The notes below the pieces were generated by a model. It saw nothing but the letters and a program-made list of their open reading frames with translations, did no database searches and was not told where the DNA came from. Below are positions 1-24,100 of a DNA stretch of 64,000 nt, in pieces. A program made the translations under genes and the position numbers. The DNA is from a virus (Duplodnaviria; Heunggongvirae; Uroviricota; Caudoviricetes). Numbering within the stretch: position 1 is the first letter of the stretch; each line of letters starts with the position of its first letter. The DNA lies in the IMG/VR virus record IMGVR_UViG_3300035208_001992; one strand, given 5' to 3'.

Positions 1-58
1 TCAATATGTATTCATATGCAGTTGGCGGTGCAACAGTTTCACACGCGTGCCTAGCCAC
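1..58 (-). CDS. MARH-tag family protein, 5' end only (MARHACETVAPPTAYEYIL..., runs off window)
   Basis: Read by hand: GTG GCT AGG CAC GCG TGT GAA starting at 58. Overlaps the TAG (51-53) of the upstream mini-gene by 8 nt. Confidence 0.8.
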   Translation of the reverse strand, partial: MARHACETVAPPTAYEYIL

Positions 59-221
59 TGACTTGTGCCTGATGAGCAGCAGCCATGACTCGGATCTCGA
101 AGAGGCTATAATCGATTTGCAAGATGTCTAGAGATCTTCTTGCTCCATGGTGGAAGATTGACCGAAGCGGCTGTGGTAGGTCAACTGACCGATCTGGAAC
201 TTCACAGGCGTGTCTTGACAT
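51..221 (-). CDS. MARH-tag mini-protein, 56 aa (MSRHACEVPDRSVDLPQ...QVSG), not in ORF track
   Basis: ATG TCA AGA CAC GCC TGT GAA GTT CCA at 221 with AAGGGAG SD 9 nt upstream. Open to TAG at 51-53, which overlaps the next tagged start. Confidence 0.75.
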   Translation of the reverse strand: MSRHACEVPDRSVDLPQPLRSIFHHGARRSLDILQIDYSLFEIRVMAAAHQAQVSG

Positions 222-919
222 GGTACGTGCTCCCTTCTCAATTTGTAGATGTATTTGCGAAATTGACGAAAGCTTAGTCGCCCATGAGCTAACAGCGCTT
301 CAACTGGTATCTCATGCAGTTTCTTCGTGTAACCGTCACGCCAAAGTATTGTGCTACGTCCGTCACAGGTCTTCGTGCCAAGCATTCCGCGTGTCATACA
401 CCTGTTTTCAGAACGCAGCCAGATAAGGACGTTGGCGGCCACTGCTGGAATGATGAGATCAGCATGGTGCTCAATCACGTCTTGCCACGAATTGAACTGG
501 CTTGCGTCAAAATCAAATTCTTCAGCTTTGTCAGTTTCAGTTATCGTGTTGCCAACGATTGAGTACTTGCGTATTGTGATCTTTGGCTTATACGTGTCTG
601 AGCATACGTCAACCAGTGACATCGATCGATAGCTTTTTCCGAACTGCTCCAATTCGAGCCTTATGCTCATGACACCAGTTCGTCTAACATCTTTGCGACG
701 TTCAGCTGTTTCTACTAGCTCGTTGATGCGCTCTTCGACTGACTCATTCACGCGTGCATCATGGCTCATGTCATTGGCTTCAACGTCATCGTATGTAGGA
801 ACCACGCCACATGACTTGACAGAGAAGTCAAGACCGAGTATTCGCACAATGCCACTTCGCAATTTGTAAGCCTTGCGCAGTTGAGCGTGAGGATCTATCT
901 CACGCATGTGCCTAGCCAT
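128..919 (-). CDS. MARH-tag family protein (MARHMRE), 263 aa
   Basis: ORF track; N-terminal tag; 8-nt ATGGCTAG overlap with upstream stop; family blocks IVRILGLDF and LLAHGRLS. Confidence 0.85.
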   Translation of the reverse strand: MARHMREIDPHAQLRKAYKLRSGIVRILGLDFSVKSCGVVPTYDDVEANDMSHDARVNESVEERINELVETAERRKDVRRTGVMSIRLELEQFGKSYRSMSLVDVCSDTYKPKITIRKYSIVGNTITETDKAEEFDFDASQFNSWQDVIEHHADLIIPAVAANVLIWLRSENRCMTRGMLGTKTCDGRSTILWRDGYTKKLHEIPVEALLAHGRLSFRQFRKYIYKLRREHVPCQDTPVKFQIGQLTYHSRFGQSSTMEQEDL

Positions 920-1733
920 TTCGGAAGCAGTATGTTGTTGCGAGTCTTCGGTTGCGTCTGAAATCGCTACCGCAGATCTCAGTCAATTTTGCTGATACAG
1001 CATTAGCAACGTCAAAATCGATTTTGCCATCGTTCACTGGTATCGCGAGTCTTTCTGCGCACCTTTTGAAATCTCTTCCACGCATGACAAATTCTGCGTT
1101 GTTGTCATCTTGGCTTTTTGCATAGCAAGTGCTCTCCAACGTTTCGGCGTCGCGCGCGTCATAGAGGCATCGATATAACACAGAGCTAAGTATGATCTCG
1201 CCATTGCCGGACGTATCAACATCGTTGATCAAGTCAAGACATAAATCAGCGTCTTTCATCGTATACACGTGTTTCAAACCGCGTGATGTTAGCAGTTGTG
1301 AAACCATAGTGTTTGTCATGCCGCGCTCGTCCAGCGTTAAGTACTTCAACAGCGTTTCAGGCGTGTTACCAAATTTCATTTGATCAGCTAGAAACGGATG
1401 CGCTGCATGCAATTTGTAGTTGTAAGCGTCAGAATTTGGACAACAATAAGTTGTTTGACCGCCTACTGACCAATCTCTTGGCAATGCAGAAATTAGACCT
1501 GCAACGTCATGTATTGGACCAAGCAATCTCCAGTTGATGAGTCGCCGTGCTTCACCACGAGTAGTCAAGCCAACTACTAAAGCTTCAATACTTTCCTCAT
1601 CAACGTCATAGACGCTGAACAATTCAATGTCGATACCGCAGAAACGCATGATAGGACGATCTTTGACAGCACGCACAACATCAGTTGCTGTTGTGCAATC
1701 TGGATCGTATTGCTCAGCCATTCGTCTAGCCAT
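912..1733 (-). CDS. MARH-tag family protein (variant MARRMAE), 273 aa
   Basis: GGAG SD; ATGGCTAG overlap; family blocks MRFCGIDIEL and VNDGKIDF. Confidence 0.85.
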   Translation of the reverse strand: MARRMAEQYDPDCTTATDVVRAVKDRPIMRFCGIDIELFSVYDVDEESIEALVVGLTTRGEARRLINWRLLGPIHDVAGLISALPRDWSVGGQTTYCCPNSDAYNYKLHAAHPFLADQMKFGNTPETLLKYLTLDERGMTNTMVSQLLTSRGLKHVYTMKDADLCLDLINDVDTSGNGEIILSSVLYRCLYDARDAETLESTCYAKSQDDNNAEFVMRGRDFKRCAERLAIPVNDGKIDFDVANAVSAKLTEICGSDFRRNRRLATTYCFRNG

Positions 1734-2445
1734 GTGTTAGCTCCACTGCTTTTTCGAATACCAGATCTGTATTGAACTTACCATGTCCGTCTGTGATGTC
1801 ATCTATGCTGTACTTCAGCTTCATACGAGTGTTTTCAACGCGTATGACTTCGTCAAGAGACTCACCAGGCAGAATTGACGTCATAGTGTTGAAGCAGAAC
1901 GGGCCATCTCCACCGCTTAGCCAAGGTTTTGCTAGTTCACAATCGTTTGAAAGGCGCACGCGCAGCTCCTTTATGAAGTCTGCACCAAGTATGTACGTGG
2001 CTGAACGCTCGGGCAAGCCTGCAACCAACGCCGCTAAGCTTGAAACGCATTTGACGACTGAGTGTTCGCTCGGATCTATTGCTTGGCAGAAGAAAGCGCC
2101 TTCTTGGATGCGCTTTGGCGCCGATACGTAATAGAAACGTCGGTCACATGCTGAAGTGAAGATGAATTGCTTGAATGGTCGTGCTGGCTCGCCTTTCATT
2201 GTTAGTGTCAAGAGAGGCTTCCACGCGTCACTGCCACGCGGAAACAGCATACTAGCTGCTGTGTCTTCAACAGCGAAATTTGAGAGCGCATATTGAAGCA
2301 TTGTCAAGTGACTTGACGAGTTGACATTGTAGTCGACACCATGGAGTTTGATTTCTTTGCTTGCGATTAGCATGTCAATGATCAACGCTGCGTACTCAAT
2401 AGGATCGCTGGGTACAGTGTTGCGTTCACATGCATGCCTAGCCAT
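1726..2445 (-). CDS. MARH-tag family protein (MARHACE), 239 aa; start corrected from 2460
   Basis: ATG at 2445 with GGAG 9 nt upstream and 8-nt overlap with TAG at 2438-2440. Confidence 0.85.
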   Translation of the reverse strand: MARHACERNTVPSDPIEYAALIIDMLIASKEIKLHGVDYNVNSSSHLTMLQYALSNFAVEDTAASMLFPRGSDAWKPLLTLTMKGEPARPFKQFIFTSACDRRFYYVSAPKRIQEGAFFCQAIDPSEHSVVKCVSSLAALVAGLPERSATYILGADFIKELRVRLSNDCELAKPWLSGGDGPFCFNTMTSILPGESLDEVIRVENTRMKLKYSIDDITDGHGKFNTDLVFEKAVELTHG

Positions 2446-3148
2446 CGTTGTCGGCTCCAAGCAGCTTCAATGCACTAGCGATGTTCGATCGCAATTGATC
2501 ATTGCTCGAGATGAGCACACCTGTGCTATGCAATGATCCAACAAGATCTCGCAACGTGTTCTCAAGCTGCTTCACGCGATCGCTATATGCTTGCAAGGTA
2601 CGTGGCGGCTCGAAATCGATGTTGAAGATGCGTCTACGAGTGTCTTTTCTTGACGCAAGCAGAAACTTCTTGCTGTCCTGGTTAAGATCACCGACCAACG
2701 TCAATTGACATACTGCGCTTAAGCTTTCAAAATACTCACCATTGTTAGTGAATACGATGCGCTTGGATCCATTGCCACTATTGATCTGGTTGAATATCAT
2801 TGAAGCAGGATTGCGTACAGAGTCAAAATGAGCAGCACTCTTCAAGTACGGAAACAGATCAAGGTATATGATGATCCCTTGAGCGCTTGCGCGACCAAGC
2901 AATGGGTTACCTGGGCCATTGCCATCATGCGTCACGGACACGTTGTGTAGGCAAAACACAGACGGATCTATGCGTGTCCGCCAGCGTCCAGGTATGACTA
3001 AGACGCTACGTGACTTGTCTGCGTCAGCATAAGCAGTGATAAGCCATGATGCGAATGAACTGAACAACGCAGCATTGCTCTCAATTCCAGTCAAATCAAT
3101 GACCGTGTGCTGTTGAAGCGTTCCAAACATGTTTTCAAGATCAAGCAT
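2438..3148 (-). CDS. hypothetical protein, 236 aa; the only gene in the array without the tag
   Basis: ORF track; GGAG SD; ATGCTTGA 8-nt overlap; contains LTLVGDLNQD. Confidence 0.8.
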   Translation of the reverse strand: MLDLENMFGTLQQHTVIDLTGIESNAALFSSFASWLITAYADADKSRSVLVIPGRWRTRIDPSVFCLHNVSVTHDGNGPGNPLLGRASAQGIIIYLDLFPYLKSAAHFDSVRNPASMIFNQINSGNGSKRIVFTNNGEYFESLSAVCQLTLVGDLNQDSKKFLLASRKDTRRRIFNIDFEPPRTLQAYSDRVKQLENTLRDLVGSLHSTGVLISSNDQLRSNIASALKLLGADNDG

Positions 3149-4172
3149 TCAGTACTCCAAGTGTTAGTGAATCGCCCATCGCGACTATTCGATTTCTACC
3201 GCGAGTTTCGCGGGTGATGAAATTCATCTCATCAATTACGATTGTTGGATGGTCTTCATCTTTGTCATGCGCTTGTCCATGAGCGTCACGTCTCGCTCGT
3301 CTTTGCTGCTGCGCGTAGTCACCAAGCGCGAACATCGATTTTCCGGCACCTCGTGAAATGGTCATAGCTCCAACGTGCTTGTCACCTATGACCTTCATGA
3401 TAAACTCTGATTGACGCTTCTCTTCACGCGCAATACCAAGTTTGACGACTTCAACTGCTGCTCGTGCAGCATCACCCTGCAGGTTGCCGTCAACTAATAG
3501 ATCCTTCAGCATCCAGCTATGCTTGTTCTTTTCTTTGCCGCCAACAAGTTCAATGAATTCAATACGTACATCGTCATCATTGCTGCCAACGTGAGTCAAG
3601 TTCATAAAGTTTCGTACAACATACTCAGTGCCCTTGATTGAGTAGTTAGTCAGTTGATCTTTCTTTGCCAAGTATGTGAACAAATAACTCAAGTAGTTCT
3701 CAAGTATGCTCAACTTTATGCTCATTGGCAACTGGTCTGTCTCTGCTTGCAAGTCGCTCGAACGCACAGAGTGCATTGACGGCATATTCATTAAGCGACT
3801 GCCAATAGGCGCAAACCACATGCTACCGCTCATCGACTCGACGTTGATGAAAGGCTCAATGACAGGTTGCCCGCCAATTTTGATGATCTTGCCGTTCAAC
3901 GATAGTGCTGTAAGCACGAACGGGCGCATTGACGCTTGCATTGACAGATATGGTACGCACGTTTTTGAATGCTCAAGCCAATTGACGATGTTTTCTATGA
4001 ATGGCACGTCTTTCTGATCTGTCATATACGCGTAATCGATCCCATTGAACGGTGCTTGTGAGATCAAACAGATTTTGACGCCACAAAGACTGATGAACAA
4101 GTTGTCAGCAACCTTGCGATCAATACTGCGGATCACTGCGTATTCATCGACTTCGTGCATATGTCTGGTCAT
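3141..4172 (-). CDS. MARH-tag family protein (MTRHMHE), 343 aa, with P-loop-like C-terminal extension
   Basis: AGGAG SD; ATGA overlap; blocks ISLCGVKI and LLVDGNL; tail contains RGAGKS...IVIDE...IVAMGD. Confidence 0.85.
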   Translation of the reverse strand: MTRHMHEVDEYAVIRSIDRKVADNLFISLCGVKICLISQAPFNGIDYAYMTDQKDVPFIENIVNWLEHSKTCVPYLSMQASMRPFVLTALSLNGKIIKIGGQPVIEPFINVESMSGSMWFAPIGSRLMNMPSMHSVRSSDLQAETDQLPMSIKLSILENYLSYLFTYLAKKDQLTNYSIKGTEYVVRNFMNLTHVGSNDDDVRIEFIELVGGKEKNKHSWMLKDLLVDGNLQGDAARAAVEVVKLGIAREEKRQSEFIMKVIGDKHVGAMTISRGAGKSMFALGDYAQQQRRARRDAHGQAHDKDEDHPTIVIDEMNFITRETRGRNRIVAMGDSLTLGVLNA

Positions 4173-4821
4173 ACGTCATTCTCCTGTTTGTCAGCATACT
4201 TCAGTTTGTGTTGGCAATAAAGCTCAACTAACTTTGTTGGTGATACCGCTTTGTCAACTATGAGATCATCAAGCGGCACATACGTTGATGACCAGCACTG
4301 TTGTTGTTGATCAACATGAAACCTCAACACGTCCGATGGATTATTGACTTGAAACATCGACATAGTCAGCGGTTCGGTTTTGAGGATCAAGAAATCCACA
4401 GTGTCGAGCTTGTCATCGCCAGCTAGACACTCATAATCATTCTTGTGCACGCAAACGCCATCGATCCAAGCGTCAACAACTGCTACCTTAGCTATACTCA
4501 TTCGCGTGCTTTGTGGCAGCGCATCAACAAAGCGTTGCGGCGTTGTAGCGGTAACTAGTGCGTCATTGACGACAAAGCAATCATCAGCAACTGCCGACGT
4601 TAGATACAAGCGCCGACCTAGCTTGCATTCTAGCAACAGCGATCCGACGACCAATAAACTGCTTTGATGAATAGTGCCTGCTGACAAAAATGTCTAAGAC
4701 GGCTATCGTCTGAGTAAACCATCATGAATTCTATTCCGTAGATTTCAACCATGTTCGACTTACTGATCGCCGAAACTAGTTGAATCCACAGAGGTCTTTG
4801 CTCATACGCATGACGCGGCAC
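4169..4821 (-). pseudogene. MARH-tag family gene (MPRHAYE) split by a 1-nt frameshift (ORFs 4630..4821 and 4169..4687)
   Basis: The tagged 63-aa ORF overlaps an untagged 172-aa ORF carrying the family blocks QRFVDALP and LDDLIVDK. Adding one T to the T5 run at 4686-4690 gives a 217-aa protein of typical family length. Confidence 0.7.
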
Positions 4822-5446
4822 CGGTCACCTCATCGTCAAAGTAGTGGACCATGCTATTGAATTTCAGCTGCTCAACAAATTTTGTCGTAGCCTGTCCCGT
4901 GGCATCTATGATCTCCAAGTCATTTATGTTCAGACCATGAACACTCGAGTATCGCGTCGACAAGCTAAATTCGCCTTCTAGTGACTGCAATGTGAGTATT
5001 AGGTCGCCGTCGACCTCACCATGGTTGATTCGACGATGTACGGCTGTTGTCACTATCTTATGCAAAACGCTAGTGACGATCTCAATTGGAAAGCTGTCGA
5101 TCACTTGCTGTGCGTTTGAACCCATGAATTGAATCACAATGCTACCAAAGTCATGCATTGCCGTGCCAGAGTCTTTATTGACGTTCAACAATGATACTGC
5201 ATGTGCTTTGTTTGGCCATGAGAGCGTCAAATAGTCTGGGTCGAACATGAGCTGCTGCGGATCTGGCGTTCGACGATCTGGCATGTTCCATGGACCTACG
5301 TGTGCACGTATCTTCAAGTCCTTGGCTACCATCAAAAATTGACGGCCTAAGAACGTTACTGGTTCTGGGCCGTCATTTACTAGACGTCTTAGCATCTTTG
5401 CGAGATGCTGAGCAGGATTCAGTTCTTCATAGGCATGTCTTGCCAC
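4802..5446 (-). CDS. MARH-tag family protein (MARHAYE, GTG start), 214 aa
   Basis: AAGGAG SD; first gene after the promoter-like motif; its TGA stop lies in codons 6/7 of the next tag. Confidence 0.85.
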   Translation of the reverse strand: MARHAYEELNPAQHLAKMLRRLVNDGPEPVTFLGRQFLMVAKDLKIRAHVGPWNMPDRRTPDPQQLMFDPDYLTLSWPNKAHAVSLLNVNKDSGTAMHDFGSIVIQFMGSNAQQVIDSFPIEIVTSVLHKIVTTAVHRRINHGEVDGDLILTLQSLEGEFSLSTRYSSVHGLNINDLEIIDATGQATTKFVEQLKFNSMVHYFDDEVTGAASCV

Positions 5447-5458
5447 TTGCGCTCCTTT

Positions 5459-5497
5459 CTATTGCTAATAGTCATTTACTCAGTCGCAAGTTTACGC
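5459..5497 (-). promoter_or_regulatory. conserved promoter-like motif GCGTAAAC-N10-GTAAAT-N4-ATTAG-N3-TAG, copy 1
   Basis: Same blocks and identical spacing as 13727-13765; spans one of the few intergenic gaps in the array. Confidence 0.65.
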
Positions 5498-6127
5498 ATG
5501 GTTAACGTCTAACATTTTGAATGAATCTTGTAAGATCTTAGCAATTTTAGCATCGTCAATCTCGTGACCAGTCACAATCTCTGCGATGTCATCAACGATC
5601 GCTCTATGTCCATCAGAGCTGATCAATGTCAAGTCGTAAGATTCATTGTCATCACTGAGATTCACGACTACTCGTCTTTTAGCAATGCAACCAGCAACGC
5701 GATAATAGCGAGCTCTCATCAGCACCTTTAGAGACTTCAATCTGTCTGTAAGCGGTAAGTTGTCGATGTAGTGCTGCAAACCAACAGGTGCTTGACTAGG
5801 CCGGCCTTGCACGGCGTTAATCACAGCCGACTCGAAAAGCGTTGTCAATGAACATGGCATCGGCACACGCACAATTGTCGACGTGGTCAGTAATGTACTG
5901 TCGGCTAAACAGGTCCAGCCAGGTTGCAAATAAAAGAAGTCACCAGAATTGTCGAAACCAATTCGGGCGCCAACGCTTATTCTGAGCACTGTGTTAATGC
6001 CAAATAGTCTTACGATGCAATCCACATATTGAATATACTCGAACTCGTTTGTCATCACTGGCCCACGTCGAAACATGCCAACGATGATTTGGTCGATCAT
6101 CAGTTGCTCATGCGCGTGTCTGGCCAT
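5492..6127 (-). CDS. MARH-tag family protein (MARHAHE), 211 aa; start corrected from 6211
   Basis: AGGAGG SD before ATG 6127; 20-nt overlap with upstream TGA at 6108. Confidence 0.85.
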   Translation of the reverse strand: MARHAHEQLMIDQIIVGMFRRGPVMTNEFEYIQYVDCIVRLFGINTVLRISVGARIGFDNSGDFFYLQPGWTCLADSTLLTTSTIVRVPMPCSLTTLFESAVINAVQGRPSQAPVGLQHYIDNLPLTDRLKSLKVLMRARYYRVAGCIAKRRVVVNLSDDNESYDLTLISSDGHRAIVDDIAEIVTGHEIDDAKIAKILQDSFKMLDVNHA

Positions 6128-6659
6128 TGCGTTGCCTCCTAGGCTTCGTGATCCTAGCGATGATAGGAGCGATCTTGTTTTCGTTGATACTGCCGTCGCT
6201 GATGACGTCACTTAATTTCACTATTTGCGACTTGAGCGTTTTGTTGAAACCAATGATTACACTACGGCTGTATCCAACGATCGTACTGTTACGCGTGTAG
6301 CAGACACTGACGTATTTGTTGTCTTTCACGCCCATCTCTTCGATGCATGCTCTGACCGCATGCTCGATTAGATCCACTTTGATTTCGCTCAACACATTCT
6401 TGATCACGCTTTTAGCGATGTTCAACGGATCAACTATGGTGCTAGTGAAAAGATAGTAGTAGGCGTCATCTCCTTGGTGAAGATGAGCAACATCGACTCT
6501 GCCACGCCAAGGAGCTGCGCTTGGAACAGCATACAGCAGACCAACAGGATCCAAACGCAATTCAAAGATGATGCCGTCCAGCTTGAACTCTTGACCAGCG
6601 CATACAGCGCGTCGCACGCGCGAGCCGTTAGTTAGTGGTTCATACGCGTGTCTACTCAT
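6108..6659 (-). CDS. MARH-tag family protein (MSRHAYE), 183 aa; start corrected from 6716
   Basis: ATGAGTAG 8-nt overlap; blocks FKLDGIIF and VISDGSIN. Confidence 0.85.
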   Translation of the reverse strand: MSRHAYEPLTNGSRVRRAVCAGQEFKLDGIIFELRLDPVGLLYAVPSAAPWRGRVDVAHLHQGDDAYYYLFTSTIVDPLNIAKSVIKNVLSEIKVDLIEHAVRACIEEMGVKDNKYVSVCYTRNSTIVGYSRSVIIGFNKTLKSQIVKLSDVISDGSINENKIAPIIARITKPRRQRNGQTRA

Positions 6660-7299
6660 CTTCGTGCAACCTCTCGCGGTAACTGCCAAGCACCCACTTA
6701 AGAACAGCCTCACCATCGATTTTGCTATTCACTGTGATGTCGGCTATTTTGACGTTTGTTCTTTCTATGTCAAAATGCCTTTTGTAGCGCTTATTTGGTG
6801 GCAGCCATAACGCAGATAAGCTTAAGCGATTATTGCACCATACAGAAAAGATCAAATCGCTATGCACATACATACTATGCGTGCGCCTAACAGCTATGGA
6901 ACTTGGCAGTTCATCGTTGAACGGTAGCAAACTTGATTTCACGAGCATATCAATGATGCTTGACTTCGTTGGGCCAGGCATGCCATTCGTCAGCTGCATC
7001 TCATCAGTTGCAGTAAAGGCATACATTCCAGTGGCAGTGCGCGAGTACACAATGTCATTGCGCTCATAAGATTCACGTGCAATGTTGATCTTTGACAATG
7101 ATTCGGGATCATGACAGTCAATCATCACACGTCCAAAATCATGCGTGGCTTCTTCACCATCTTCATTCATGAAATAGAATGGCTCTTCATGTGAGCAGAC
7201 TAAGGCATTCAACCCACAAATTTCGATTGTTGCTGGCTTGCTGACAAGTGATCGAGCCCAGTCTATAGGTTGCATTCGTTCGTACATGTGCCTAGCCAT
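6652..7299 (-). CDS. MARH-tag family protein (MARHMYE), 215 aa; start corrected from 7356
   Basis: GGAG SD; ATGGCTAG overlap with the mini-gene stop at 7292. Confidence 0.85.
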   Translation of the reverse strand: MARHMYERMQPIDWARSLVSKPATIEICGLNALVCSHEEPFYFMNEDGEEATHDFGRVMIDCHDPESLSKINIARESYERNDIVYSRTATGMYAFTATDEMQLTNGMPGPTKSSIIDMLVKSSLLPFNDELPSSIAVRRTHSMYVHSDLIFSVWCNNRLSLSALWLPPNKRYKRHFDIERTNVKIADITVNSKIDGEAVLKWVLGSYRERLHEDE

Positions 7300-7456
7300 G
7301 TGATGCAGTCTCCATTTGTTCGCGATCATGCAGCATTCGAGCAAGCACTTGGTCACTAACTTGCAAGGTTTGGAATGGCTTCAAAGTTCCGTTCATTTGC
7401 ATAAAACTCACAACGATTTCTACTATGCCTGGCACTTCACATGCGTGCCTAGCCAT
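7292..7456 (-). CDS. MARH-tag mini-protein, 54 aa (MARHACEVPGIVEIV...ASHG), not in ORF track
   Basis: Translated by hand; coupled at both ends by ATGGCTAG overlaps. Confidence 0.8.
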   Translation of the reverse strand: MARHACEVPGIVEIVVSFMQMNGTLKPFQTLQVSDQVLARMLHDREQMETASHG

Positions 7457-7631
7457 GAGACATCAACCTAGCTGCAGGTGGCCTGATCTGTATAAGTGAT
7501 TCGGTGAACTGTTTGAACATCTTCTCAGCATCGACTTGCCCAAACGTTGACACTTCGTCAAACGCGCACCAAACTCGCGTGCCGCCGCGCAATCGCTGAA
7601 CATCAGGTACTTCACAACCGTGTCCAGCCAT
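7449..7631 (-). CDS. MARH-tag mini-protein, 60 aa (variant MAGHGCEVPD...); start corrected from 7673
   Basis: AGGAG SD 8 nt before ATG 7631; upstream mini-gene stops at the TGA inside the tag (7612). Confidence 0.75.
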   Translation of the reverse strand: MAGHGCEVPDVQRLRGGTRVWCAFDEVSTFGQVDAEKMFKQFTESLIQIRPPAARLMSHG

Positions 7632-7776
7632 TTGAGATCTCCTGTCGACGACGTCTTTCTTCCATTGCTTCATTTATCCATTTTGGTGACAAGTCATAGA
7701 CTCGTATCATGCGCCCGTCATTGCGCTCAATTGTCATGACATTTTCGTCTTTCACTTCTGCGCCGTGTCTAGCCAT
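7612..7776 (-). CDS. MARH-tag mini-protein, 54 aa (MARHGAEVKDENV...GWTRL), not in ORF track
   Basis: GGAGG SD before ATG GCT AGA CAC GGC GCA GAA at 7776; open to TGA at 7612. Confidence 0.8.
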   Translation of the reverse strand: MARHGAEVKDENVMTIERNDGRMIRVYDLSPKWINEAMEERRRRQEISNGWTRL

Positions 7777-8408
7777 TTGGCAACCTCCGCTTCTTTGAAT
7801 TTGTCAAAGCATATAAGTGCTCGCTCGAACAGGAAGTGTTCGTCAAGAGCGCCGTCTTTGATGCATTCATCTAACTTACAAATAGGCATAGGCATGATCA
7901 TGCGTCTGTCACTTGTCATTATCGCAAAGCCGATCAGCAAGTCATGACTACTTAAGTTGTATGTAATCAGCGAACGCAACAACGTATCACGAGAAATGCT
8001 GGTGATTTTTTTGATGCTAGATAAGATGTCGTAGCGCGCGATGATTGAAGATCTGACGTGGCAACCGATTACGTTAGAAATCAAGTTGTCAGGAGCGCAA
8101 TCAATCAACTCTTGCGCGTTAATGCTGGATGGAACATTGACACGATTAGACATGTTGTACGTGCCAGCGCCATCGTCCTCTGTCGAATTGAATCGTGCAA
8201 TAACGCTTTCACCAAGATCATGCCTGAATAACCATGTCACGTTGAGCCATTGACTGTCCGCAATTATGACGCGATCTTCATCGTAATCTGAGCCACAACG
8301 CCTCCACACTTTGCCATTAAGTCCATGCATAGTCGCGTCTATTGGACAAGCTAACGCGTTCATCCAGCGAGTCATTGGTTGACACTGTTCGTATGCGTGT
8401 CTAGGCAT
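7752..8408 (-). CDS. MARH-tag family protein (MPRHAYE), 218 aa; start corrected from 8441
   Basis: ATGCCTAG overlap; blocks QELIDCAP and CIKDGALD. Confidence 0.85.
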   Translation of the reverse strand: MPRHAYEQCQPMTRWMNALACPIDATMHGLNGKVWRRCGSDYDEDRVIIADSQWLNVTWLFRHDLGESVIARFNSTEDDGAGTYNMSNRVNVPSSINAQELIDCAPDNLISNVIGCHVRSSIIARYDILSSIKKITSISRDTLLRSLITYNLSSHDLLIGFAIMTSDRRMIMPMPICKLDECIKDGALDEHFLFERALICFDKFKEAEVAKWLDTAQK

Positions 8409-9057
8409 GGGTAGTATACAGCTTTCCAAATACAGCTTCAATCTGGTCTTTGGTTTGCTGCTTGAACGACAAGACCAAACGCATTATTCTATAGCGATCG
8501 AAATCACCATCACGCAACAGCGACGACAATGGAGCGCTTGCTGTTTCGGAGACGTTGAAGTGCGTGCTTGTCGCGCCAATCACAGCAAATTTTACATGCA
8601 ACGCGTCTTGCGCGTCTTCACTGATGACAACGTCCATCTTTGAGACGCAGTCACTCACATAGCTACTACGCCGAGACAAATCGAACGTTTTCACAACGTA
8701 ATCCTGAAAGGCATATCGCAGCAACTGCAACTTCTTGGACTTCGGAAGTTCGTCGACAATCTGCTGTGGCTCGCGACAATCCAATGGCTGACGTATACTA
8801 GTGAATCGGTCATTGCCTTCACGCCAGTTAGCCACAAAGTAATCGCGAGAACTCAAATATGATGTGTCAATAATCAAGCTCTTGAATGGGAATGTCATAA
8901 GCATGTCGCACTTGTCTTGATCTGTACCAGGCACTCCAATGAGCCAATCGAGCCTGAGCACACAGTTGACTCCGCAAAGTTTGACGTGTTGCGGTGTAGC
9001 AAGGCACTTCACTTGATCTTCCCATATTTGTCGATGTTCGACTGCATGCCTGCTCAT
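8401..9057 (-). CDS. MARH-tag family protein (MSRHAVE), 218 aa
   Basis: GGAG SD; ATGA overlap; blocks VKLCGVN, QQIVDELP and LLRDGDFD. Confidence 0.85.
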   Translation of the reverse strand: MSRHAVEHRQIWEDQVKCLATPQHVKLCGVNCVLRLDWLIGVPGTDQDKCDMLMTFPFKSLIIDTSYLSSRDYFVANWREGNDRFTSIRQPLDCREPQQIVDELPKSKKLQLLRYAFQDYVVKTFDLSRRSSYVSDCVSKMDVVISEDAQDALHVKFAVIGATSTHFNVSETASAPLSSLLRDGDFDRYRIMRLVLSFKQQTKDQIEAVFGKLYTTHA

Positions 9058-9686
9058 GCTTGTGCTCCAACGCGTTTGTCTTCGACAATTAAGCGCTTTT
9101 CAAGTAGTGACAGACTTAGCAATTTAGGCAAGTTGAACTTACCGTCTTCGCACACGTCAGCAATAGTGATCACAGCAACACCATGATGCTTGACATAGTC
9201 ACTCAACCTTCTTGTGATATAGCATTCTTTGAGGTCACAGCTGACAACGATTGACATCAAGCCAAACGTGATCTCGTATCCGATCGATCTGGCGTACAAT
9301 ATAAGGGCGTTAGTCAAGATCGACTCGAACACATTTCTGAGGTCAGTCGCAGGTATTGCGTCGACCAATGATTGAAGCGACGAGCTGCATATTGCATCAG
9401 CATGTCCGTTGATGTACTTAGATGCGGCGTCATGCTGGTAGATGAAAACATCGCTCTCGTCATCATACCAAGCAATAGCACAACCGTACTTGTTTTGACC
9501 GTAGCTCAACGCAAGACGGTCAGTCGTCTTAGGAACGAGCTCGTCGAACTTGCGCGTTGCATCTGCATTGAACATGCGTGCGCTCAAATCAATCAAGCCA
9601 ACGTGTACAACGTTGTTGTGTTGGATCATTTTGAGAAGATCTTGGTATTTGAGCACTTTACCGATCTCGCACATATGTCTAGCCAT
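9054..9686 (-). CDS. MARH-tag family protein (MARHMCE), 210 aa
   Basis: AGGAG SD; ATGGCTAG overlap; blocks QSLVDAIP and VCEDGKFN. Confidence 0.85.
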   Translation of the reverse strand: MARHMCEIGKVLKYQDLLKMIQHNNVVHVGLIDLSARMFNADATRKFDELVPKTTDRLALSYGQNKYGCAIAWYDDESDVFIYQHDAASKYINGHADAICSSSLQSLVDAIPATDLRNVFESILTNALILYARSIGYEITFGLMSIVVSCDLKECYITRRLSDYVKHHGVAVITIADVCEDGKFNLPKLLSLSLLEKRLIVEDKRVGAQA

Positions 9687-10374
9687 GTCCGATTACTCCT
9701 ACCTCGTCAGATGGCACTGTTACTCCAGCAGTGTTGAATCCGTTCAATGTAAGCTGCTCAAGCACATACTTGTCAACGCGCTTCACGTTCTCGACTAAGC
9801 TAGACATTGTACAGATTTTCTTGGCGTGGACAAGCACATCATAGTCACCGTTGCGCCAGACTAACTTTGTGAATTTGTTGTCGCTTCTTACCATTCTTAT
9901 GTTCGGCAGGTCGAGAATCAATGATGCAACATATTCAACTATGGTGAACAAAATCTGAGACAATGCATAATAGTGTTGTTGCGTGCCAGTGAATTCATCA
10001 ACAAGATCTTGAAGTCTGCCACAAAACGCTGTTGGTAATTTGTACCAGCTATTCTCAGAACCGGAACTGAACAGCTGCATGTCAGGTTGGTATGTGCCAC
10101 GACAAATTCGCGCTAGCGTGACTGATCTCGTAATGAACTTAAGAGGAGCACTAAGATCAAGATTGAGCATCGCAACGCTAACCGGCATGATATTGAACTC
10201 ATTGTCAAGCATGCTCACTTGCTCTTCACCAGACATACGAGTCATTGTGAAGAATGCACTGCTTACTGTGGCATCAATTCCGCAAAGTTTGATCGACAAT
10301 TGCTGGTTGCCGCGATCGAGATACTCCACCAAGCGATCACGTGGACTGACTCGTTCTGTCATGTGTCTAGCCAT
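9679..10374 (-). CDS. MARH-tag family protein (MARHMTE), 231 aa; start corrected from 10407
   Basis: GGAGG SD; TAATG overlap; blocks IKLCGID and QDLVDEF. Confidence 0.85.
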   Translation of the reverse strand: MARHMTERVSPRDRLVEYLDRGNQQLSIKLCGIDATVSSAFFTMTRMSGEEQVSMLDNEFNIMPVSVAMLNLDLSAPLKFITRSVTLARICRGTYQPDMQLFSSGSENSWYKLPTAFCGRLQDLVDEFTGTQQHYYALSQILFTIVEYVASLILDLPNIRMVRSDNKFTKLVWRNGDYDVLVHAKKICTMSSLVENVKRVDKYVLEQLTLNGFNTAGVTVPSDEVGVIGHG

Positions 10375-11129
10375 TACAGCAACCTCCGCGTATGATGCAG
10401 CTTCCAAATTTCGTCGTCTTTCACAGCAATGATGTCTTTCAACTTTGCCTCATCAAATTTCACAGCTTTAGCAGCAGACAGCGTGATGACGTCGACTCGA
10501 CGTTCAGCGCTCGCGTTTGTCATGACGACAAAGTCTTTCTTGACTCGACGTATATGGAATCTAGAGCCTTCCAATGAGTACGCCAGCACATAGTTGAGCA
10601 GCATTCTAGCTAACAGCGCGTCTTTGTCTTTAGCGCTGAGCTCATTCAACTGTTGCTTAATCACGTCCTGTCCAACGACCAGGTTGAATGGTTCTAAATC
10701 GCATGCTGGGTCTACGCGCCCGAACACGCGTCTACCACCATCAAAATTCGAACCATATAGCAAAGTCACCACATCGAATTGGTCGTCGGACGTTGCCGCA
10801 ACAAACGGGACGTCGATCGACGTTGCAGTCTGTGTGGTCGACTTTATTGATGCGAAGAACATTTCAGCAAAGCTACTGTAGCTCTTCCAACCGTCACGCG
10901 TTGTAACTGCATTGATCGGAAAATGAGCAGTGCTTGGATCAGAGCAATCGTCTAGTACGAGCTCAACTGTTTCTCTAAGATTGCTATCGACATATGTAAG
11001 TCTCTTTGCCGCTGAAGTAACGATGATCGGCAATCCATCGATCTCTAACTCGACTGGATCAGCGTACTTGATGAGTGCTTCAGCAAGCATATCTCGTCCA
11101 CAAGCCTTTTCAGTCATATGCCTAGGCAT
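10374..11129 (-). CDS. MARH-tag family protein (MPRHMTE), 251 aa
   Basis: ATGCCTAG overlap; block LEIDGLPI. Confidence 0.85.
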   Translation of the reverse strand: MPRHMTEKACGRDMLAEALIKYADPVELEIDGLPIIVTSAAKRLTYVDSNLRETVELVLDDCSDPSTAHFPINAVTTRDGWKSYSSFAEMFFASIKSTTQTATSIDVPFVAATSDDQFDVVTLLYGSNFDGGRRVFGRVDPACDLEPFNLVVGQDVIKQQLNELSAKDKDALLARMLLNYVLAYSLEGSRFHIRRVKKDFVVMTNASAERRVDVITLSAAKAVKFDEAKLKDIIAVKDDEIWKLHHTRRLL

Positions 11130-11769
11130 GATGCCTCAACAGTTTCTTGCGCTCCAATTCAGCGCGTAAGAACGTGAGCGGATGCTGGTACGACGCAAGT
11201 GTTCTGACGCTGCTGACAACTACATGCGTTGAAAGGAAGAGTGCAGCATCATCATTTCCAATAGGCTTGGCATAGCAAGTTTTTGTTCCTCCATCTTTGC
11301 AAAAGTTAGCGAGTGCTGCCAAGACGCATTTGCAACCAAACCAGAATTTGGTCTCATTGCTTAGCATGTCAAACGCTTCTCGTATGCTATTGACGGATCG
11401 ATATGATACTGCTTGCATCTCAATCGTTGATGACCTAGCCCAATCAGATGCTGTTTCAGCGTTCATCACTGCGATGTAAAACAAGCCAGATCCAAAGTTT
11501 GTGGCGAGGAAAGAATGCCAGTCAGTTGGAAGACGCTTCTCGTCCAAGCTGCCATCTGTCAGTTGCGCGTCACCGAGGTTGAACATCATGTTGGACGACG
11601 TGTTCTTTGCAAAAGCATATGCACTCTTCACAACTGTTTCAACATTAACGCGACATGGACGGACGTTCATTTGCAGATTGCCGAATAGTGGCACGCGTTC
11701 TTCTTGGCATTCGAACACTCGTTTGATCTGGTCTTCGAACGTTACTTGCTCAGCCATGTGTCTAGCCAT
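11122..11769 (-). CDS. MARH-tag family protein (MARHMAE), 215 aa
   Basis: GGAG SD; ATGGCTAG overlap. Confidence 0.85.
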   Translation of the reverse strand: MARHMAEQVTFEDQIKRVFECQEERVPLFGNLQMNVRPCRVNVETVVKSAYAFAKNTSSNMMFNLGDAQLTDGSLDEKRLPTDWHSFLATNFGSGLFYIAVMNAETASDWARSSTIEMQAVSYRSVNSIREAFDMLSNETKFWFGCKCVLAALANFCKDGGTKTCYAKPIGNDDAALFLSTHVVVSSVRTLASYQHPLTFLRAELERKKLLRHHA

Positions 11770-12439
11770 GAAGTGGGCTCCAATTCCGTATCAGTTCATT
11801 GCGTAGTTTAGCATATGGACGATCTGGCTCATGTATGATGCTTGCAACGTCACTAACAATGACGCTACCCTTTTGAGTATCATACAGTTCGATCAATCCG
11901 TCTGCGTTCAAGTGCATTCCAATGCGTTGCGGTACGTTACCGCATGCACCACCGAATTCCTGAGCAACATACATGTTGAGCTCATCTTGGTACTCGCGTG
12001 TGATGAACATGTCTTTGTGACATTTGCTCAAGCAATTAAACGCGTCTTGTATCGACTGCACTTCTAAATATGGCACAAGCTCACTGTCATTTCTTGTAGC
12101 ATACATCCAAGCTAGCGCACTTGGACGTCTTAGCGCAAAATGCTGTGACCTATACGATATGCCGTCCACTGACAGCAGACCATAACGACTCAAATCTTGT
12201 TTGGTCACAATCCTGTCATCGCTTGAAGGCCACATAATATATGATTCAATAATTGGCCTGCTAACTTGGTCAGGCATGTTCACGAACATCTTACGTTCTA
12301 TAGGCTCGCGTTGATTGAGCGACGTGTAGATCTTTATCTTCAGCTCTTTGTTCAACTCGAATGTCTGTGGTTCACTATTGTGTAGGACGCAAAGACAATG
12401 GAAGAAGCTTGGTCTAGTTTCAGTAGCATGCCGACTCAC
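11762..12439 (-). CDS. MARH-tag family protein (MSRHATE, GTG start), 225 aa; closest paralog of 13029..13694
   Basis: AAGGAG SD; aligns by eye with 13029..13694 (LRRPSALAWMY/LRTPNAYARIY; VIVSDVASII/VIISDVSQII). Confidence 0.85.
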   Translation of the reverse strand: MSRHATETRPSFFHCLCVLHNSEPQTFELNKELKIKIYTSLNQREPIERKMFVNMPDQVSRPIIESYIMWPSSDDRIVTKQDLSRYGLLSVDGISYRSQHFALRRPSALAWMYATRNDSELVPYLEVQSIQDAFNCLSKCHKDMFITREYQDELNMYVAQEFGGACGNVPQRIGMHLNADGLIELYDTQKGSVIVSDVASIIHEPDRPYAKLRNELIRNWSPLHG

Positions 12440-12466
12440 AGCAGATCTCCTTTGTTGATGACGTTG

Positions 12467-13036
12467 TTAGAACCAGCGTTCAACCTCTTCAATATCTATC
12501 ATGTGATTCGACACCAGTGCGCTGAGCATTATCTCAGGTGAGACGAAGAGCATCTCTTCAATGAAGCAGTGAGCGACTAGTCCAATGTCTTTTCCATGCG
12601 TGTTAGCAGTCAGGCGAGTCAAATGTGCTTGCCTGACTGCTTTGATCCGCTTACCTTCATGACCAATCTTGCTGAATCTTGATCGTCGCAAAACGCCTTT
12701 GACCATCTCAGTAGCAACTATGCCTTGATGCGCTTCTGACATGTCATCAATCAACTGCTGTGGATCAGCGCTGTGCATGGTAAGTTCTTCGTCAATCATT
12801 ATCATGTACTCGCTGCTCAACTTCTTGTGGCCGATCATGACGTTGAACTCATTGACGCGCTTCAATCGAACAGCATGTGATAACTCCAAGTCACTCTCAT
12901 CGCCTTCGTACACGTTTTCAAATGTGTCGATGACCATAGTGCATTCGATGTCATGGAACATCACCGTTTGCTCTTCACGCAAGTTGCTGGCCAATCGCGT
13001 CCAGCACGACAGTTCTTCTGGCATATGCCTAGACAT
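12467..13036 (-). CDS. MARH-tag family protein (MSRHMPE), 189 aa; start corrected from 13120
   Basis: GGAG SD; ATGTCTAG overlap; block QQLIDDMS. Confidence 0.85.
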   Translation of the reverse strand: MSRHMPEELSCWTRLASNLREEQTVMFHDIECTMVIDTFENVYEGDESDLELSHAVRLKRVNEFNVMIGHKKLSSEYMIMIDEELTMHSADPQQLIDDMSEAHQGIVATEMVKGVLRRSRFSKIGHEGKRIKAVRQAHLTRLTANTHGKDIGLVAHCFIEEMLFVSPEIMLSALVSNHMIDIEEVERWF

Positions 13037-13694
13037 GAGTACGACTCCATTGACGTACAAATTCATCGTAGAATTTGACGTACGGTTCATCAACCTCATT
13101 GATGATCTGTGACACGTCACTAATGATCACTTCTTCACAGGTGGAGTACGTTACGTCTAAGACATCTTCATTTATGACAACATTCAAAAACGTGCGTACG
13201 TCATTTATGCCGCGCTTCACTGAAAGATCTATTGCGAGTCTAAGGAAGAACTCGCTCGTGATGATCACGTCTTTGGTTAGCTTACTCAAGCACTCCCAAG
13301 TTTGTTTGATGGATCTGATGTCTTTGCACAACACGCTTTTGGATCCTTCAGCAAACGGATAAATCCTGGCATATGCGTTTGGCGTTCTCAACAGCATCTC
13401 TTCTGAAGCGAGTGATTCACTAGATGCCATCAGCAAGACGAATCGTGACGCTGGTCCTAATTCTGGATCAGTTCTAGTTTCGTTGGTTGTCCACGTTGCC
13501 CAGCCGTTGACTATTGGATGATGCAGTGTCTTGGATGTGTCTTGTGGGTACAGTATGTCATCAATAGATGCTGGAGTAGCGCTAACGCGCATCTGCAAAT
13601 CACTGTTCAATACGAATATCTGCGGATCGCAGCGTTTGATGTCACATAGGCAATTGTAGATGTCATCACGATCTTCGAATGCATGTCTAGCCAA
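13029..13694 (-). CDS. MARH-tag family protein (MARHAFE, TTG start), 221 aa; first gene of the array
   Basis: AAGGAG SD; lies downstream of the nrdJ terminator and the promoter-like motif. Confidence 0.85.
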   Translation of the reverse strand: MARHAFEDRDDIYNCLCDIKRCDPQIFVLNSDLQMRVSATPASIDDILYPQDTSKTLHHPIVNGWATWTTNETRTDPELGPASRFVLLMASSESLASEEMLLRTPNAYARIYPFAEGSKSVLCKDIRSIKQTWECLSKLTKDVIITSEFFLRLAIDLSVKRGINDVRTFLNVVINEDVLDVTYSTCEEVIISDVSQIINEVDEPYVKFYDEFVRQWSRTHV

Positions 13695-13726
13695 CTGTTG
13701 ATCTCCTTCAGTAGCAGTGATGATAC

Positions 13727-13765
13727 CTAGTACTAATCACTATTTACACATTGCATTGTTTACGC
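13727..13765 (-). promoter_or_regulatory. conserved promoter-like motif, copy 2 (head of MARH array)
   Basis: GCGTAAAC-aatgcaatgt-GTAAAT-agtg-ATTAG-tac-TAG; same spacing as 5459-5497. Confidence 0.65.
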
Positions 13766-13785
13766 CTGGTTAACAGCGGCCAATA

Positions 13786-13827
13786 GAAACAAAAGAGGCC
13801 GGCACCCTCATCGGATACCGGCCTCTT
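13786..13827 (-). terminator. intrinsic terminator after nrdJ
   Basis: Minus-strand hairpin AAGAGGCCGGTATCC-GATGA-GGGTGCCGGCCTCTT followed by TTGTTTC. Confidence 0.85.
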
Positions 13828-13852
13828 GCCTCAATTTGTGCTACTTAAGTTG

Positions 13853-16500: not shown

Positions 16501-16521
16501 CTACTCACTAGGTATATTTAC
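16501..16521 (-). promoter_or_regulatory. partial copy of the promoter-like motif (GTAAAT-N12-TAG) upstream of nrdJ
   Basis: GTAAAT-atacctagtgag-TAG, with the same 12-nt spacing as the two array copies. Confidence 0.45.
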
Positions 16522-16525
16522 AATG

Positions 16526-21142: not shown

Positions 21143-24100
21143 CTAGTTAGCGATGCCAAGGGCGTCATCACTCAGCTTGACCTTCAGTAGCCTGTAGACC
21201 CTGCTTGAGATCATGACTGGGTTTCTTAGTGGAGCTCGCAGCGACAGCCGCTTCACCTCACGTCCGATTCCTTTCTGAGTCACTTCCTTCCAGTAGTATG
21301 GTTGCATGCGTCGGAAGCCACAAGCGCTAAGCACCTGTGCTTGCTTTGCAGTGCAATCAGTTTGGATGATAAGCAACCGTTGATCAACGACGATGTAGCC
21401 CAAGTCAATCTCAACAGCACGTGCTGCAGTGATTGCGTTGTACACAGACACTGTTGCTGTCTGGTCTGGCTTCTCGATCCGTCGTAGAATCCGCATCACC
21501 TGCTTGAACTCAGGCGTGTCGAACTCGTCAATGTTTGTCAATGTAGCACCGCTACGCTGCAGACGCTTGAGCAATATCGGCAACTGAGCTTCAGTCGTGA
21601 TTGGGAAGAACATGCTGTTGAACATCACGCGGTATCCAGGGATGCCCTTGATCTTCTTCCAAAGCGGATTGCTCTTTGTTGCTGGGACAACAAGCGTGAT
21701 CAAACCGTTTTGGTCGCCAATCGCTACTTGCAATGTAGCAGGATCATCAGTTAGCTTAGCGTCACGCTGCACTGGTCCTGAGATCGTGCGCTCATTGTCG
21801 CCAGGCTCTGGCGCTGGCTTACGCACGCGCTCTTCACCTGTACGGCGCTGCAGCGCTGCATCTTGCGTTGTTGTGAACTGCTTCGATGCGCGCTTGAACG
21901 ACATCATCAAGCGGCGATCATCATCATTTGGATTGACGCGATTGTCACTGATTGCTGAGTACACAGCGAGCACAGCCTTCGACTTCTTGAAGATCTGATG
22001 GAACTTGCCAATCATGACTGCTTCGTAGATCGTCGTCACAAGCGAGTTGTCGACGCTCAACGGGCGCTTTTCAAGGAACGTGGTCAGCTTCTGATCGAGC
22101 CCTTGCTTGCTAGCTGCACGAAGCAGCTTCACAATGCGTTGACGCATGATCGTCTCTTCATCGTCCTGTCCGATGTCGCGAAGATCGCGTTCAGCGCGCT
22201 GCTCGATCTCTTCCTCAGACACGCGGTTAGTCTGTGGGATGGACATCTCTTCTGGCTGAATGCCAGCAGTTGGCCATGGCTCGTAGACCTTGGATGAACC
22301 TGCAATGTCGCGATCTTCATGACGGATGTTGTCGTTGTCGAGACCATAGAACGTCAAGCGGACGGGCTTCAGTTCACCAGCGCGCTTTTCATCGCGGATG
22401 TACATGTAGCCTTGCTTCTTGGCTGCAATGACATACACGACCTTGTTCTCGATGCTTGTGTTGGGCTCACGCGGAATAAACGTCGGTAAGCCGTGGAACG
22501 TGGTTTCACGTGAAGGCTCGCGAATTTCATTGCGACGATCCAATTGCTTCCACACGAACTTCAGCGGATCACGATCCATCTGCTCTTTGGTATCGCATAG
22601 CTTGAGCAAGTACGAAGCGCGCCAGACGTTAGACATCTTGAGCTCGTACTCGTAGATGCTCTGGTGCAGGTCAAGCAAGTTGACGCTGCGTTGTCCGCTG
22701 CTGTACGTGTAATTGACCAAGTTGTACTCGCCAGAGATCTCACCGCTCGGTCCAGCCGTCTGCGGATTGACTGTGATCTCTTCGATCCACTTGTTCGAGT
22801 CGAAGTCAGACGAGACCTTCTTGTTGACGTTCTCACGCGTGATGAGTCGAGCTAACATAGCAGGCTCGAAGCTCTTCGTGCACAAGATGTTGTCAACGTA
22901 AACGTTCTTCGTCTGGCCTGTACGGAAGGCACGTGCGATCGATTGATCGAAGTCACCAGTGGTCCACGGAATCGTCAAGCGAATCACGCGGCTCACTGAT
23001 TGCATGTTCACACCCTCTTTGATCGAATTCTCGACCGCACAGAGGATGAATGGCGACTTGTTGTTCGGATCGCAGAACGCATCGAGATGCTCACGGTGCG
23101 CAGCGTCGTAGTAAGCAACGTCGCGATCAGTGAACCCGTTCTCTTTCAGGATACGCACCATGTGCTGCGCGATCAATGCGCGGTCACTCATGATGACGAT
23201 CTTGCCGATCTTCTCGCTCTCGGGTCCAGCCTGTTCTGCTGGCACAACGTAAGTGCCGCCTGTCGATGCGAAGTGCAATCGCACGCGTTCAAGCACCATA
23301 TTGTCCTTGGGACCACGCAACAGGTCTTCGACGTTGAAGCTCATGCGTTCGCGAACGGTACGCAGTGCTTCAGTGAAGACCGGGAAGCGCTCAGGCGCCG
23401 ACACTAACGCGCGAAGCGCCATGAGGCGTCCTGCAACAGTCGACGCTCGCATGTTTGTTGCAAGATCATTCGACTCGCTCTGCAAGCGTGCGATTTCGCG
23501 ATCTTCGTCTTCGATCGTGTCGGTCTCATCAACGTCTTCGAGTCCGTTGTCGTTGTCGGTCTCATTGTTGATGTGACCACCAAGAGCTTCAGTGAATTCG
23601 GCTGGGAACTGTTCCTCAGTCGAATCCCAAAGCGTCTTGTAGATATTGTAGACAACTGGAGCCTCTTGCTCGAAGTTAGCGAAGAAGAACTTCTCTTCCT
23701 TGCGAGGCATTTGGTACAGCCACTCTTCACGGCGCATCGTGATGACGCCACGACGCTGGATGTACTGACGTAGCTCCTTGAGCTTGTCATGGTTCCAATC
23801 ACGGCCGTTGTTCAACGTGTAGCGACGCTTGAAGTCAGCCACAGAACCAAGCATCGTCGGGTCAATGAACTTCACCTGGTTGAACATGTCTTGCGGCGAG
23901 CGCGAGATGAACGTGCCAGTCATGATGAACTTGTACTTCACACGCGATAGTGCCATACAGGCCTTGTGCGCGTAAGAACCAGTCTCGTAGTTGTTCTTGA
24001 TCTTGTGCGATTCGTCAAGGAACACGATGTTGACGCCGGCTTTGCTCAACATGTCCTCGACTACGGGGAACATGTACTCGACCTTGTGATGCACCTTGCC

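Follow-up and report, generated by a model that had tools for sequence, protein, structure and literature searches.

The 64,000-nucleotide stretch considered here (hereafter, the window) comes from the phage of IMG/VR record IMGVR_UViG_3300035208_001992 (Caudoviricetes), which is uncultured and known from metagenomes only. Positions 1–13694 of the window are occupied by an array of minus-strand genes whose products, with one exception, begin with variants of the heptapeptide M-[ASPT]-R-H-[AMG]-x-E (hereafter, the tag). A first-pass annotation, made from the letters alone, had listed 23 tagged starts, and a direct reading of the DNA finds every one of them, always in minus-strand genes. The constancy that it had reported for individual residues is likewise found: Glu7 is present in 23/23, Arg3 in 22/23 (it is Gly in the gene starting at 7631), and His4 in 22/23 (Arg in the gene starting at 1733), the two one-residue variants of the strict tag thus being MAGHGCE (7631) and MARRMAE (1733).

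In a six-frame translation of the whole 64 kb, the strict pattern x-[ASPT]-R-H-[AMG]-x-E matches 21 times, and all 21 matches lie at array start codons within 1–13694; in 50 shuffles, the same pattern matched 0.3 times on average and twice at most. The confinement of the tag to the array, which had been proposed together with a check by regular expression, holds across the window, with 0 strict matches elsewhere. Eighteen of the 23 genes start with ATG, four with GTG (58, 4821, 5446, and 12439), and one with TTG (13694). The choice of start codons is supported by a GGAG-type Shine–Dalgarno sequence, which precedes about 20 of the 23 by 7–15 nt. Public gene calls often place the starts of array genes at Met5 or later, which explains why the tag is hidden in databases.

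Members of the array and their relatives

From its first gene to the left edge of the window, the array reads as follows ("long members" belong to the protein family described below):

13029–13694, minus strand: first array gene, tagged long member, LARHAFE, TTG start, 221 aa
12467–13036, minus strand: tagged long member, MSRHMPE, 189 aa
11762–12439, minus strand: tagged long member, VSRHATE (Arg encoded by CGG), 225 aa; paralog of 13694 (32% identity, expectation value (E) 2e-32)
11122–11769, minus strand: tagged long member, MARHMAE, 215 aa
10374–11129, minus strand: tagged long member, MPRHMTE, 251 aa
9679–10374, minus strand: tagged long member, MARHMTE, 231 aa; precisely absent from one wastewater-run contig
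9054–9686, minus strand: tagged long member, MARHMCE, 210 aa
8401–9057, minus strand: tagged long member, MSRHAVE, 218 aa; the member used for the structure model
7752–8408, minus strand: tagged long member, MPRHAYE, 218 aa
7612–7776, minus strand: tagged mini-gene, MARHGAE, 54 aa
7449–7631, minus strand: tagged mini-gene, MAGHGCE (Gly for Arg3), 60 aa
7292–7456, minus strand: tagged mini-gene, MARHACE, 54 aa
6652–7299, minus strand: tagged long member, MARHMYE, 215 aa
6108–6659, minus strand: tagged long member, MSRHAYE, 183 aa; orthologue L001:3451–3978 (36% identity)
5492–6127, minus strand: tagged long member, MARHAHE, 211 aa
4802–5446, minus strand: tagged long member, VARHAYE, 214 aa; orthologue L001:5873–6457 (26% identity)
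4169–4821, minus strand: frameshifted long member, consisting of a 63-aa VPRHAYE piece (4630–4821, Arg encoded by CGT) and a 172-aa piece (4169–4687) in different frames; two tblastn pieces against L001:2829–3458
3141–4172, minus strand: tagged long member, MTRHMHE, 343 aa; orthologue L001:6438–7298 (28% identity)
2438–3148, minus strand: untagged gene within the array, from a different family, 236 aa, with an H-D-G-N-G-P-G-N-P block; better conserved than the tagged members, with 42% identity to L001:7300–8034
1726–2445, minus strand: tagged long member, MARHACE, 239 aa
912–1733, minus strand: tagged long member, MARRMAE (Arg for His4), 273 aa
128–919, minus strand: tagged long member, MARHMRE, 263 aa
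51–221, minus strand: tagged mini-gene, MSRHACE, 56 aa; 94-nt overlap with the end of the preceding gene; tagged orthologue L001:1958–2161 (36% identity)
1–58, minus strand: start of the tagged long member g58, VARHACE, 244 aa in full (L003)

The array runs beyond the left edge of the window. A public overlapping contig, L003, contains the remainder of g58 followed by another five tagged genes (MTRAMLE, MTRRMAE, MPRHMHE, MARHMPE, and MRGRAFE), which brings the tagged genes of the array to about 28; a gene with a cREC domain comes after them, then others. The 63-aa gene at 4821 was recognized as the N-terminal piece of a frameshifted long member by tblastn with its orthologue in L001. In an independent ENA assembly, a 243-kb contig ends at about window position 4845, beside this frameshift, which may mean strain variation or an assembly problem.

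A whole-library search with hidden Markov models, covering 1.8 billion representatives, matched only the window's own genes, P0018, and P0019, and a profile of 32 members added only P0029. One of the two outside matches lies in L001, a 16.6-kb contig of a related metagenomic phage with the same order of reductase, terminator, array, and cREC gene (see below). L001 has 11 tagged starts, of the form M-[AP]-R-H-[AMG]-C-E, with Cys6 in 10/11. Between the two phages, orthologous array bodies are 26–36% identical and flanking genes 42–59%, with the tag unchanged. Two other related metagenomic assemblies likewise retain the tag despite the divergence of the bodies; P0019 and P0029 originate from additional samples. 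Within the L001 array, there are two small untagged, very hydrophobic (membrane-like) proteins (L001:4639–4941 and L001:5602–5880), which are absent from the array of the window.

The window DNA itself is found identical in one landfill run and one groundwater run and, in pieces and at 95–99% identity, in two wastewater runs; no RNA run is among the sequencing runs listed as carrying it. Cultured phages gave no match to megablast of 1–14000 or to tblastn of one array protein and of an 840-aa and a 439-aa protein, and the ribonucleotide reductase next to the array has only distant matches among them. IMG/VR yielded no match to two protein scans or two tag-DNA patterns. In JGI metagenome contigs, the tag-DNA pattern had 16 matches, all single ones without a second tag, and these were judged to be due to chance.

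The long members of the array are one new, very diverged paralog family. The first-pass annotation had described the bodies as highly diverged and the tag as heading unrelated peptides of 54–60 aa. The divergence is real insofar as BLASTP connects only a few pairs of array proteins; what does not stand is the impression that the long members lack a relationship to one another, since they have weak motifs in common and one predicted fold. As for the short peptides, the four mini-genes (221, 7456, 7631, and 7776) do fall outside the long family, so that the tag heads at least two unrelated kinds of protein: besides the long family, there is the mini-gene at 221, whose L001 orthologue is tagged as well. 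Alignments of 17 and of 32 long members reveal, besides the tag, three weak common motifs: h-x-h-x-G-[IL] near residues 35–45, a mid-protein block Q-x-h-h-D-x-h-P, and a C-terminal block h-x-D-h-x-x-D-G. From the 32-row alignment, AlphaFold predicted one fold for the member at 8401–9057, with a predicted local distance difference test score (pLDDT) of 71 and a predicted template-modelling score of 0.69.

Searches of Pfam and PHROG with the long array proteins gave no family match. The fold search proposed earlier was run with Foldseek against PDB and BFVD, and no match to the array model was obtained at E<=0.001; the best VIA Z score was 6.3, under the tool's own noise guide, and template-modelling (TM) scores in the Atlas were at most 0.39. 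A likeness of the C-terminal half of the model to type III secretion chaperones and to chimallin (Z about 5) was treated as noise. A profile comparison of the array family with the polyprotein P0020 (see below) showed no relation.

Constraint on the tag as peptide and as DNA

The first-pass annotation had taken synonymous variation in the tag as a sign of selection on the peptide, and this is borne out at the level of codons. The information content of the region is limited to codons 1–5 and 7, where it is weak at third positions, with codons 6 and 8–10 free; upstream, the Shine–Dalgarno sequence is the sole conserved feature. The codons of the conserved His (CAC:CAT, 13:11) and Glu (GAA:GAG, 20:8) are used as in other genes. 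Switches between codon families also occur, Arg being encoded by CGN in 4/26 tags of this genome and 2/11 of L001, and Ser by both AGY and TCN.

Another explanation is that the conservation resides mainly in the nucleic acid, with ATG-GCT-AGR-CAY serving as start codon, stop codon of the upstream gene, re-initiation site, and recombination repeat, and with the peptide as a by-product. The junctions give this idea some substance: 13 of the 24 array junctions in the window are 8-nt overlaps, in 12 of which the TAG embedded in the tag (within GCT-AGR) is the stop codon of the upstream gene. TAG is present at nucleotides 5–7 of 17/28 tags. Arg is encoded by AGR in 22/26 tags, a bias that reflects the embedded stop; the figure is 13% for other genes and 28% for the bodies of array genes. 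In one contig from a wastewater run, moreover, position 9675 is joined to 10364 over 11 letters common to two tags, and exactly the gene 9679–10374 is lost. This observation suggests cassette loss by recombination between tags, although one low-depth contig is only a hint.

These DNA-level roles do not account for the codon periodicity, the background-like variation in the third positions of the His and Glu codons, the Arg and Ser family switches, or the freedom of codons 6 and 8–10. The tag is also retained where no upstream gene requires it: the first gene of the operon is tagged in both phages though no upstream gene ends there, and in L001 this tag has GCA CGG and no TAG. It is retained, too, after gaps of 27 and 45 nt and after overlaps of other lengths, and an Rfam search of 1–14000 found no match. 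A mainly nucleic-acid origin for the conservation is quite improbable. The idea of a palindromic DNA site (CAC-ATG-TG or CAC-GCG-TG) was abandoned, the required TG being present in only 7/23 window tags.

The tag is under both peptide and DNA constraint, mainly the former. At the protein level, the heptapeptide M-[ASPT]-R-H-[AMG]-x-E would be read by one common phage partner. At the DNA level, the same letters have further uses: they hold the stop codon of the upstream gene, allowing for translational coupling, and their first 11 nt provide microhomology through which whole gene cassettes may be lost or gained.

The second motif and the fate of the tag

A clue to the partner may lie in a second motif of the same genome, [VI]-x-A-R-[VTI]-[ASG]-x-E, which occurs near N-termini and at module borders of a conserved gene cluster. 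There are 13 copies of it, compared with 0.26 in shuffles; it ends at residues 10–24 in five neighbouring genes and recurs at internal module borders. The cluster comprises five or six adjoining genes (window 59329–63999 and L004:5023–12124), two of which concern us in the window:

59329–61452, minus strand: 707-aa polyprotein-like gene (P0020), outside the array; A-R-[VT]-A-x-E ending at residues 12, 152, 292, 442, and 563
63220–63999, minus strand: C-terminal part (last 259 codons) of a 404-aa gene (L004:7019–8233), outside the array; VSARVAVE after an acidic linker and before the C-terminal module

In the genes just upstream of the 707-aa open reading frame, partly beyond the window (L004), the motif ends at residues 10, 14, and 24 and has internal sites as well. 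Among P0020 homologues with 24–37% identity, the columns invariant at module borders are the motif's A, R, and E, and L021, a distant relative in which the gene order is the same, has the motif at corresponding places. The prohead protease of phage SPN3US cleaves behind A-x-E sites, preferably those with Val at P4, and makes several cuts per propeptide (PMC10052503). Since the second motif fits this site, it is, judging by sequence, best read as the site of a maturation protease, presumably the prohead protease, and the cluster likely represents a set of protease-processed proteins.

Several genes here deserve mention in their own right. The N-terminus of the 404-aa protein resembles the start of ART-PolyVal ADP-ribosyltransferase (ART) domains (F-x-R-W-F-G-x-S-K-V-V-D...G-x-P-L-x-V-Y); an Atlas structure match has a TM score of 0.62 by target, the pLDDT of its AlphaFold model is only 31, and Pfam gave no match for it, so that the ART link is a lead only. 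The 441-aa protein encoded at 61898–63223 is without the second motif; its residues 120–222, approximately, resemble Hjc/Cas4-type PD-(D/E)XK nucleases in the Atlas model, again a lead only. Directly upstream of the cluster is a ferritin-like protein (L004:4448–5026), and L004:1765–4425 encodes an 886-aa protein with radical-SAM and methyltransferase domains.

The tag and the second motif were compared over 40 tags and 33 motif copies, with the Glu of each taken as P1. They have a common skeleton, small-R-x-small-x-E (A-R-x-small-x-E): P1 is Glu in 39/40 tags and 31/33 motifs, P5 is Arg in 38/40 and 33/33, and P6 is Ala in 22/40 and 29/33, while half of the tags have Ala or Gly at P3. Residues 5–7 of 39/40 tags read [AMG]-x-E, which agrees with the prohead-protease pattern of a hydrophobic or small P3 and Glu at P1, insofar as a pattern of letters can tell.

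In the reading preferred here, to which we give a probability of roughly 0.45, the tag is a minimal propeptide that targets a set of packaged proteins to the capsid and is then cleaved off, which would make the array a larger variant of the T4 internal-protein system. Recognition of the tag would most likely fall to the head-maturation (prohead) protease acting with the assembly core. Each protein would be drawn into the prohead by its tag, which would then be removed after Glu7, presumably by the enzyme that cuts the second motif, and this cutting would accompany packaging and ejection. On this view, about 28 rapidly diverging proteins would travel in the capsid and probably enter the next host along with the DNA, as do the T4 internal proteins. 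The tag would be accessible for such processing: in the AlphaFold model of the member at 8401–9057, residues 1–10 form a coil that precedes the first helix.

Several points weigh against this reading. His at P4 (36/40 tags) and Met at P3 (20/40) are found in 0/33 motif copies, and the motif has a hydrophobic P8, which is impossible for a protein starting at P7; given these differences, the same enzyme may not cut the tag. Searches of Pfam and PHROGs with the window and those flanks that could be read, a part of this genome of at least 305 kb, found no prohead protease, capsid, or portal family. At 7 residues, the tag is shorter than any documented propeptide of the kind (10–19 aa in T4, 20–254 aa in SPN3US), and 28 cargo species would be without precedent. 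The array proteins are mostly acidic to neutral and rich in Cys, unlike the basic internal proteins of T4. A further point comes from the position of the array beside a gene for ribonucleotide reductase (see below).

Another possibility is that the tag stays on the mature proteins as a working part, either as a docking peptide for a phage or host partner or for the virion, or as a metal-binding N-terminus. In the latter case, removal of Met would leave an X-R-H start with His in third place, to which Cys6 and Glu7 could add ligands. Residue 2 is A, S, P, or T in 39/40 tags, and all four permit the removal of methionine under the requirement listed in PMC10052503. The frequency of His4 (36/40) and of Cys6 in L001 (10/11) points in the same direction, as do the departures of His4 and Met5 from the candidate cut motif. 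Moreover, residues 1–10 of the AlphaFold model have a pLDDT of about 70, which is atypical of full disorder. However, His4, replaced by Arg or Ala in four members, varies more than Glu7 and Arg3, a ranking more in keeping with a cut site than with metal binding centred on His. Cys6 is found in only 7/23 window tags. That the same seven residues head 54-aa peptides and 343-aa proteins alike, finally, argues for a signal rather than for part of a fold. A tag that persists uncleaved in this way is held to be unlikely, if still a serious competitor to the capsid-targeting propeptide.

The right-hand border of the array bears on when its genes are expressed. The relevant features are:

13700–13790, minus strand: conserved intergenic stretch with a TGTAAATA box at 13741–13748, candidate promoter of the array operon
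13793–13827, minus strand: strong terminator-like hairpin with a 15-bp stem, 3' of the ribonucleotide reductase gene, parting the reductase from the array
13853–16357: gene for a class II ribonucleotide reductase

In L001, the hairpin is conserved together with about 60 nt beyond it. The TGTAAATA box occurs upstream of the reductase gene as well (16515–16522), and the window has four matches to it against 0.8 expected; from these occurrences, it may be a promoter element common to the array and the reductase gene. A scan for sigma-70-type promoters gave 29 matches against a shuffle mean of 20.7 (standard deviation 4.9), that is, an excess of about 1.7 standard deviations, which was not taken as significant. 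With its place beside the reductase, its own terminator, and the common TGTAAATA box, the array may be an early or middle operon that is not co-expressed with head genes.

This arrangement leads to a different proposal, in which the tag is a regulatory N-terminus: a degradation signal that a protease of the host or the phage would recognize, timing the removal of early proteins, or a nascent-peptide or start-region element that sets the level of translation. The array seems to be an operon of its own beside a gene of early or middle type, and one signal would allow for common control. On the other side, the tag is not known to resemble any bacterial N-terminal degradation signal, and regulation leaves unexplained why the tag should look like the A-R-x-small-x-E found at the module borders of other proteins. 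The odds for such a regulatory role seem poor.

Elsewhere in the window, there is a 1972-aa protein with an SNF2 helicase core (21143–27061), and there are large proteins with repeated Fn3-associated and CHB_HEX_C domains (36672–41114, 1480 aa, and 42313–48213, 1966 aa), one protein of the set having PKD domains; these large proteins are likely surface or fibre proteins.

Significance and comparison with known systems

In its fullest form, the capsid-targeting interpretation would have a seven-residue label load some 28 diversifying proteins for co-injection by a phage of more than 300 kb, as a self-expanding cassette system for injected effectors. This extended claim is a doubtful one. If true, the co-injected set would be the largest injected arsenal known. 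Should the tag be a label for capsid loading and cleavage, it would be the shortest known. The T4 strategy would then have arisen or persisted in an unrelated giant environmental phage lineage at a scale of about 28 genes, and a whole new protein family would become a source of candidate injected host-takeover or anti-defence factors. A-R-x-small-x-E would then be a sequence rule predicting virion cargo and maturation cuts in the lineage, and the tag a very small one for packaging foreign proteins. The dual-coded junction, with start, stop, and recombination site within 11–21 nt, is an example of how arrays of this kind may grow and shrink.

The closest parallel in principle is phage T4, in which the internal proteins and Alt enter the prohead via an N-terminal capsid-targeting sequence (CTS) of 10–19 residues that ends at the site of the prohead protease gp21 and is then removed by this enzyme (PMC9026906, PMC3012670). 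In the T-even phages, the internal proteins are highly diverse defence proteins in which the CTS alone is conserved (PMC3012670, PMC9026906). As in IPI, IPII, IPIII, and Alt, the array has a short common N-terminal peptide ending in x-E on otherwise diverse bodies. The T4 analogy drawn in the first-pass annotation is strengthened by the presence, in the same genome, of the A-R-[VTI]-[ASG]-x-E motif that fits the prohead-protease site of giant phages (PMC10052503). By contrast, the description of the tag as a "new protein-targeting system" was overstated, since a conserved CTS on diverse internal proteins embodies the same principle (PMC3012670). The differences are nonetheless considerable: the tag has 7 residues as against 10–19 and does not resemble the T4 CTS in sequence; a single operon holds about 28 genes rather than three or four; and, apart from the mini-genes, the bodies belong to one paralog family that is very diverged, the proteins being mostly acidic and their cleavage and packaging putative. 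Unlike T4, the lineage is unrelated to any cultured phage.

A second comparison is with the substrates of giant-phage prohead proteases. SPN3US gp245 and phiKZ gp175 cut at A-x-E or S/A/G-x-E, and the head and ejection proteins of these phages occur in paralog families (PMC10052503, PMC5694885). The A-R-V-A-x-E of the present genome is similar in its Glu at P1, small residue at P3, and Val at P4, whereas its invariant Arg at P5 sets the lineage apart. The tag itself departs further from the SPN3US sites, with His at P4 and often Met at P3, and the propeptides of SPN3US are 20–254 aa long. The proteins examined from this phage showed no homology to those of SPN3US or phiKZ.

Finally, there is a likeness in theme to polyvalent and other head-packaged effectors. 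Polyvalent proteins, T4 Alt, and the Dar proteins of P1 travel in the capsid and are injected together with the DNA, to be freed by proteolysis (PMC5512222), and it is the 404-aa neighbour bearing the second motif that has an ART-PolyVal-like N-terminal stretch. The polyvalent effectors are, however, domains of one giant polypeptide, whereas the array consists of separate small genes.

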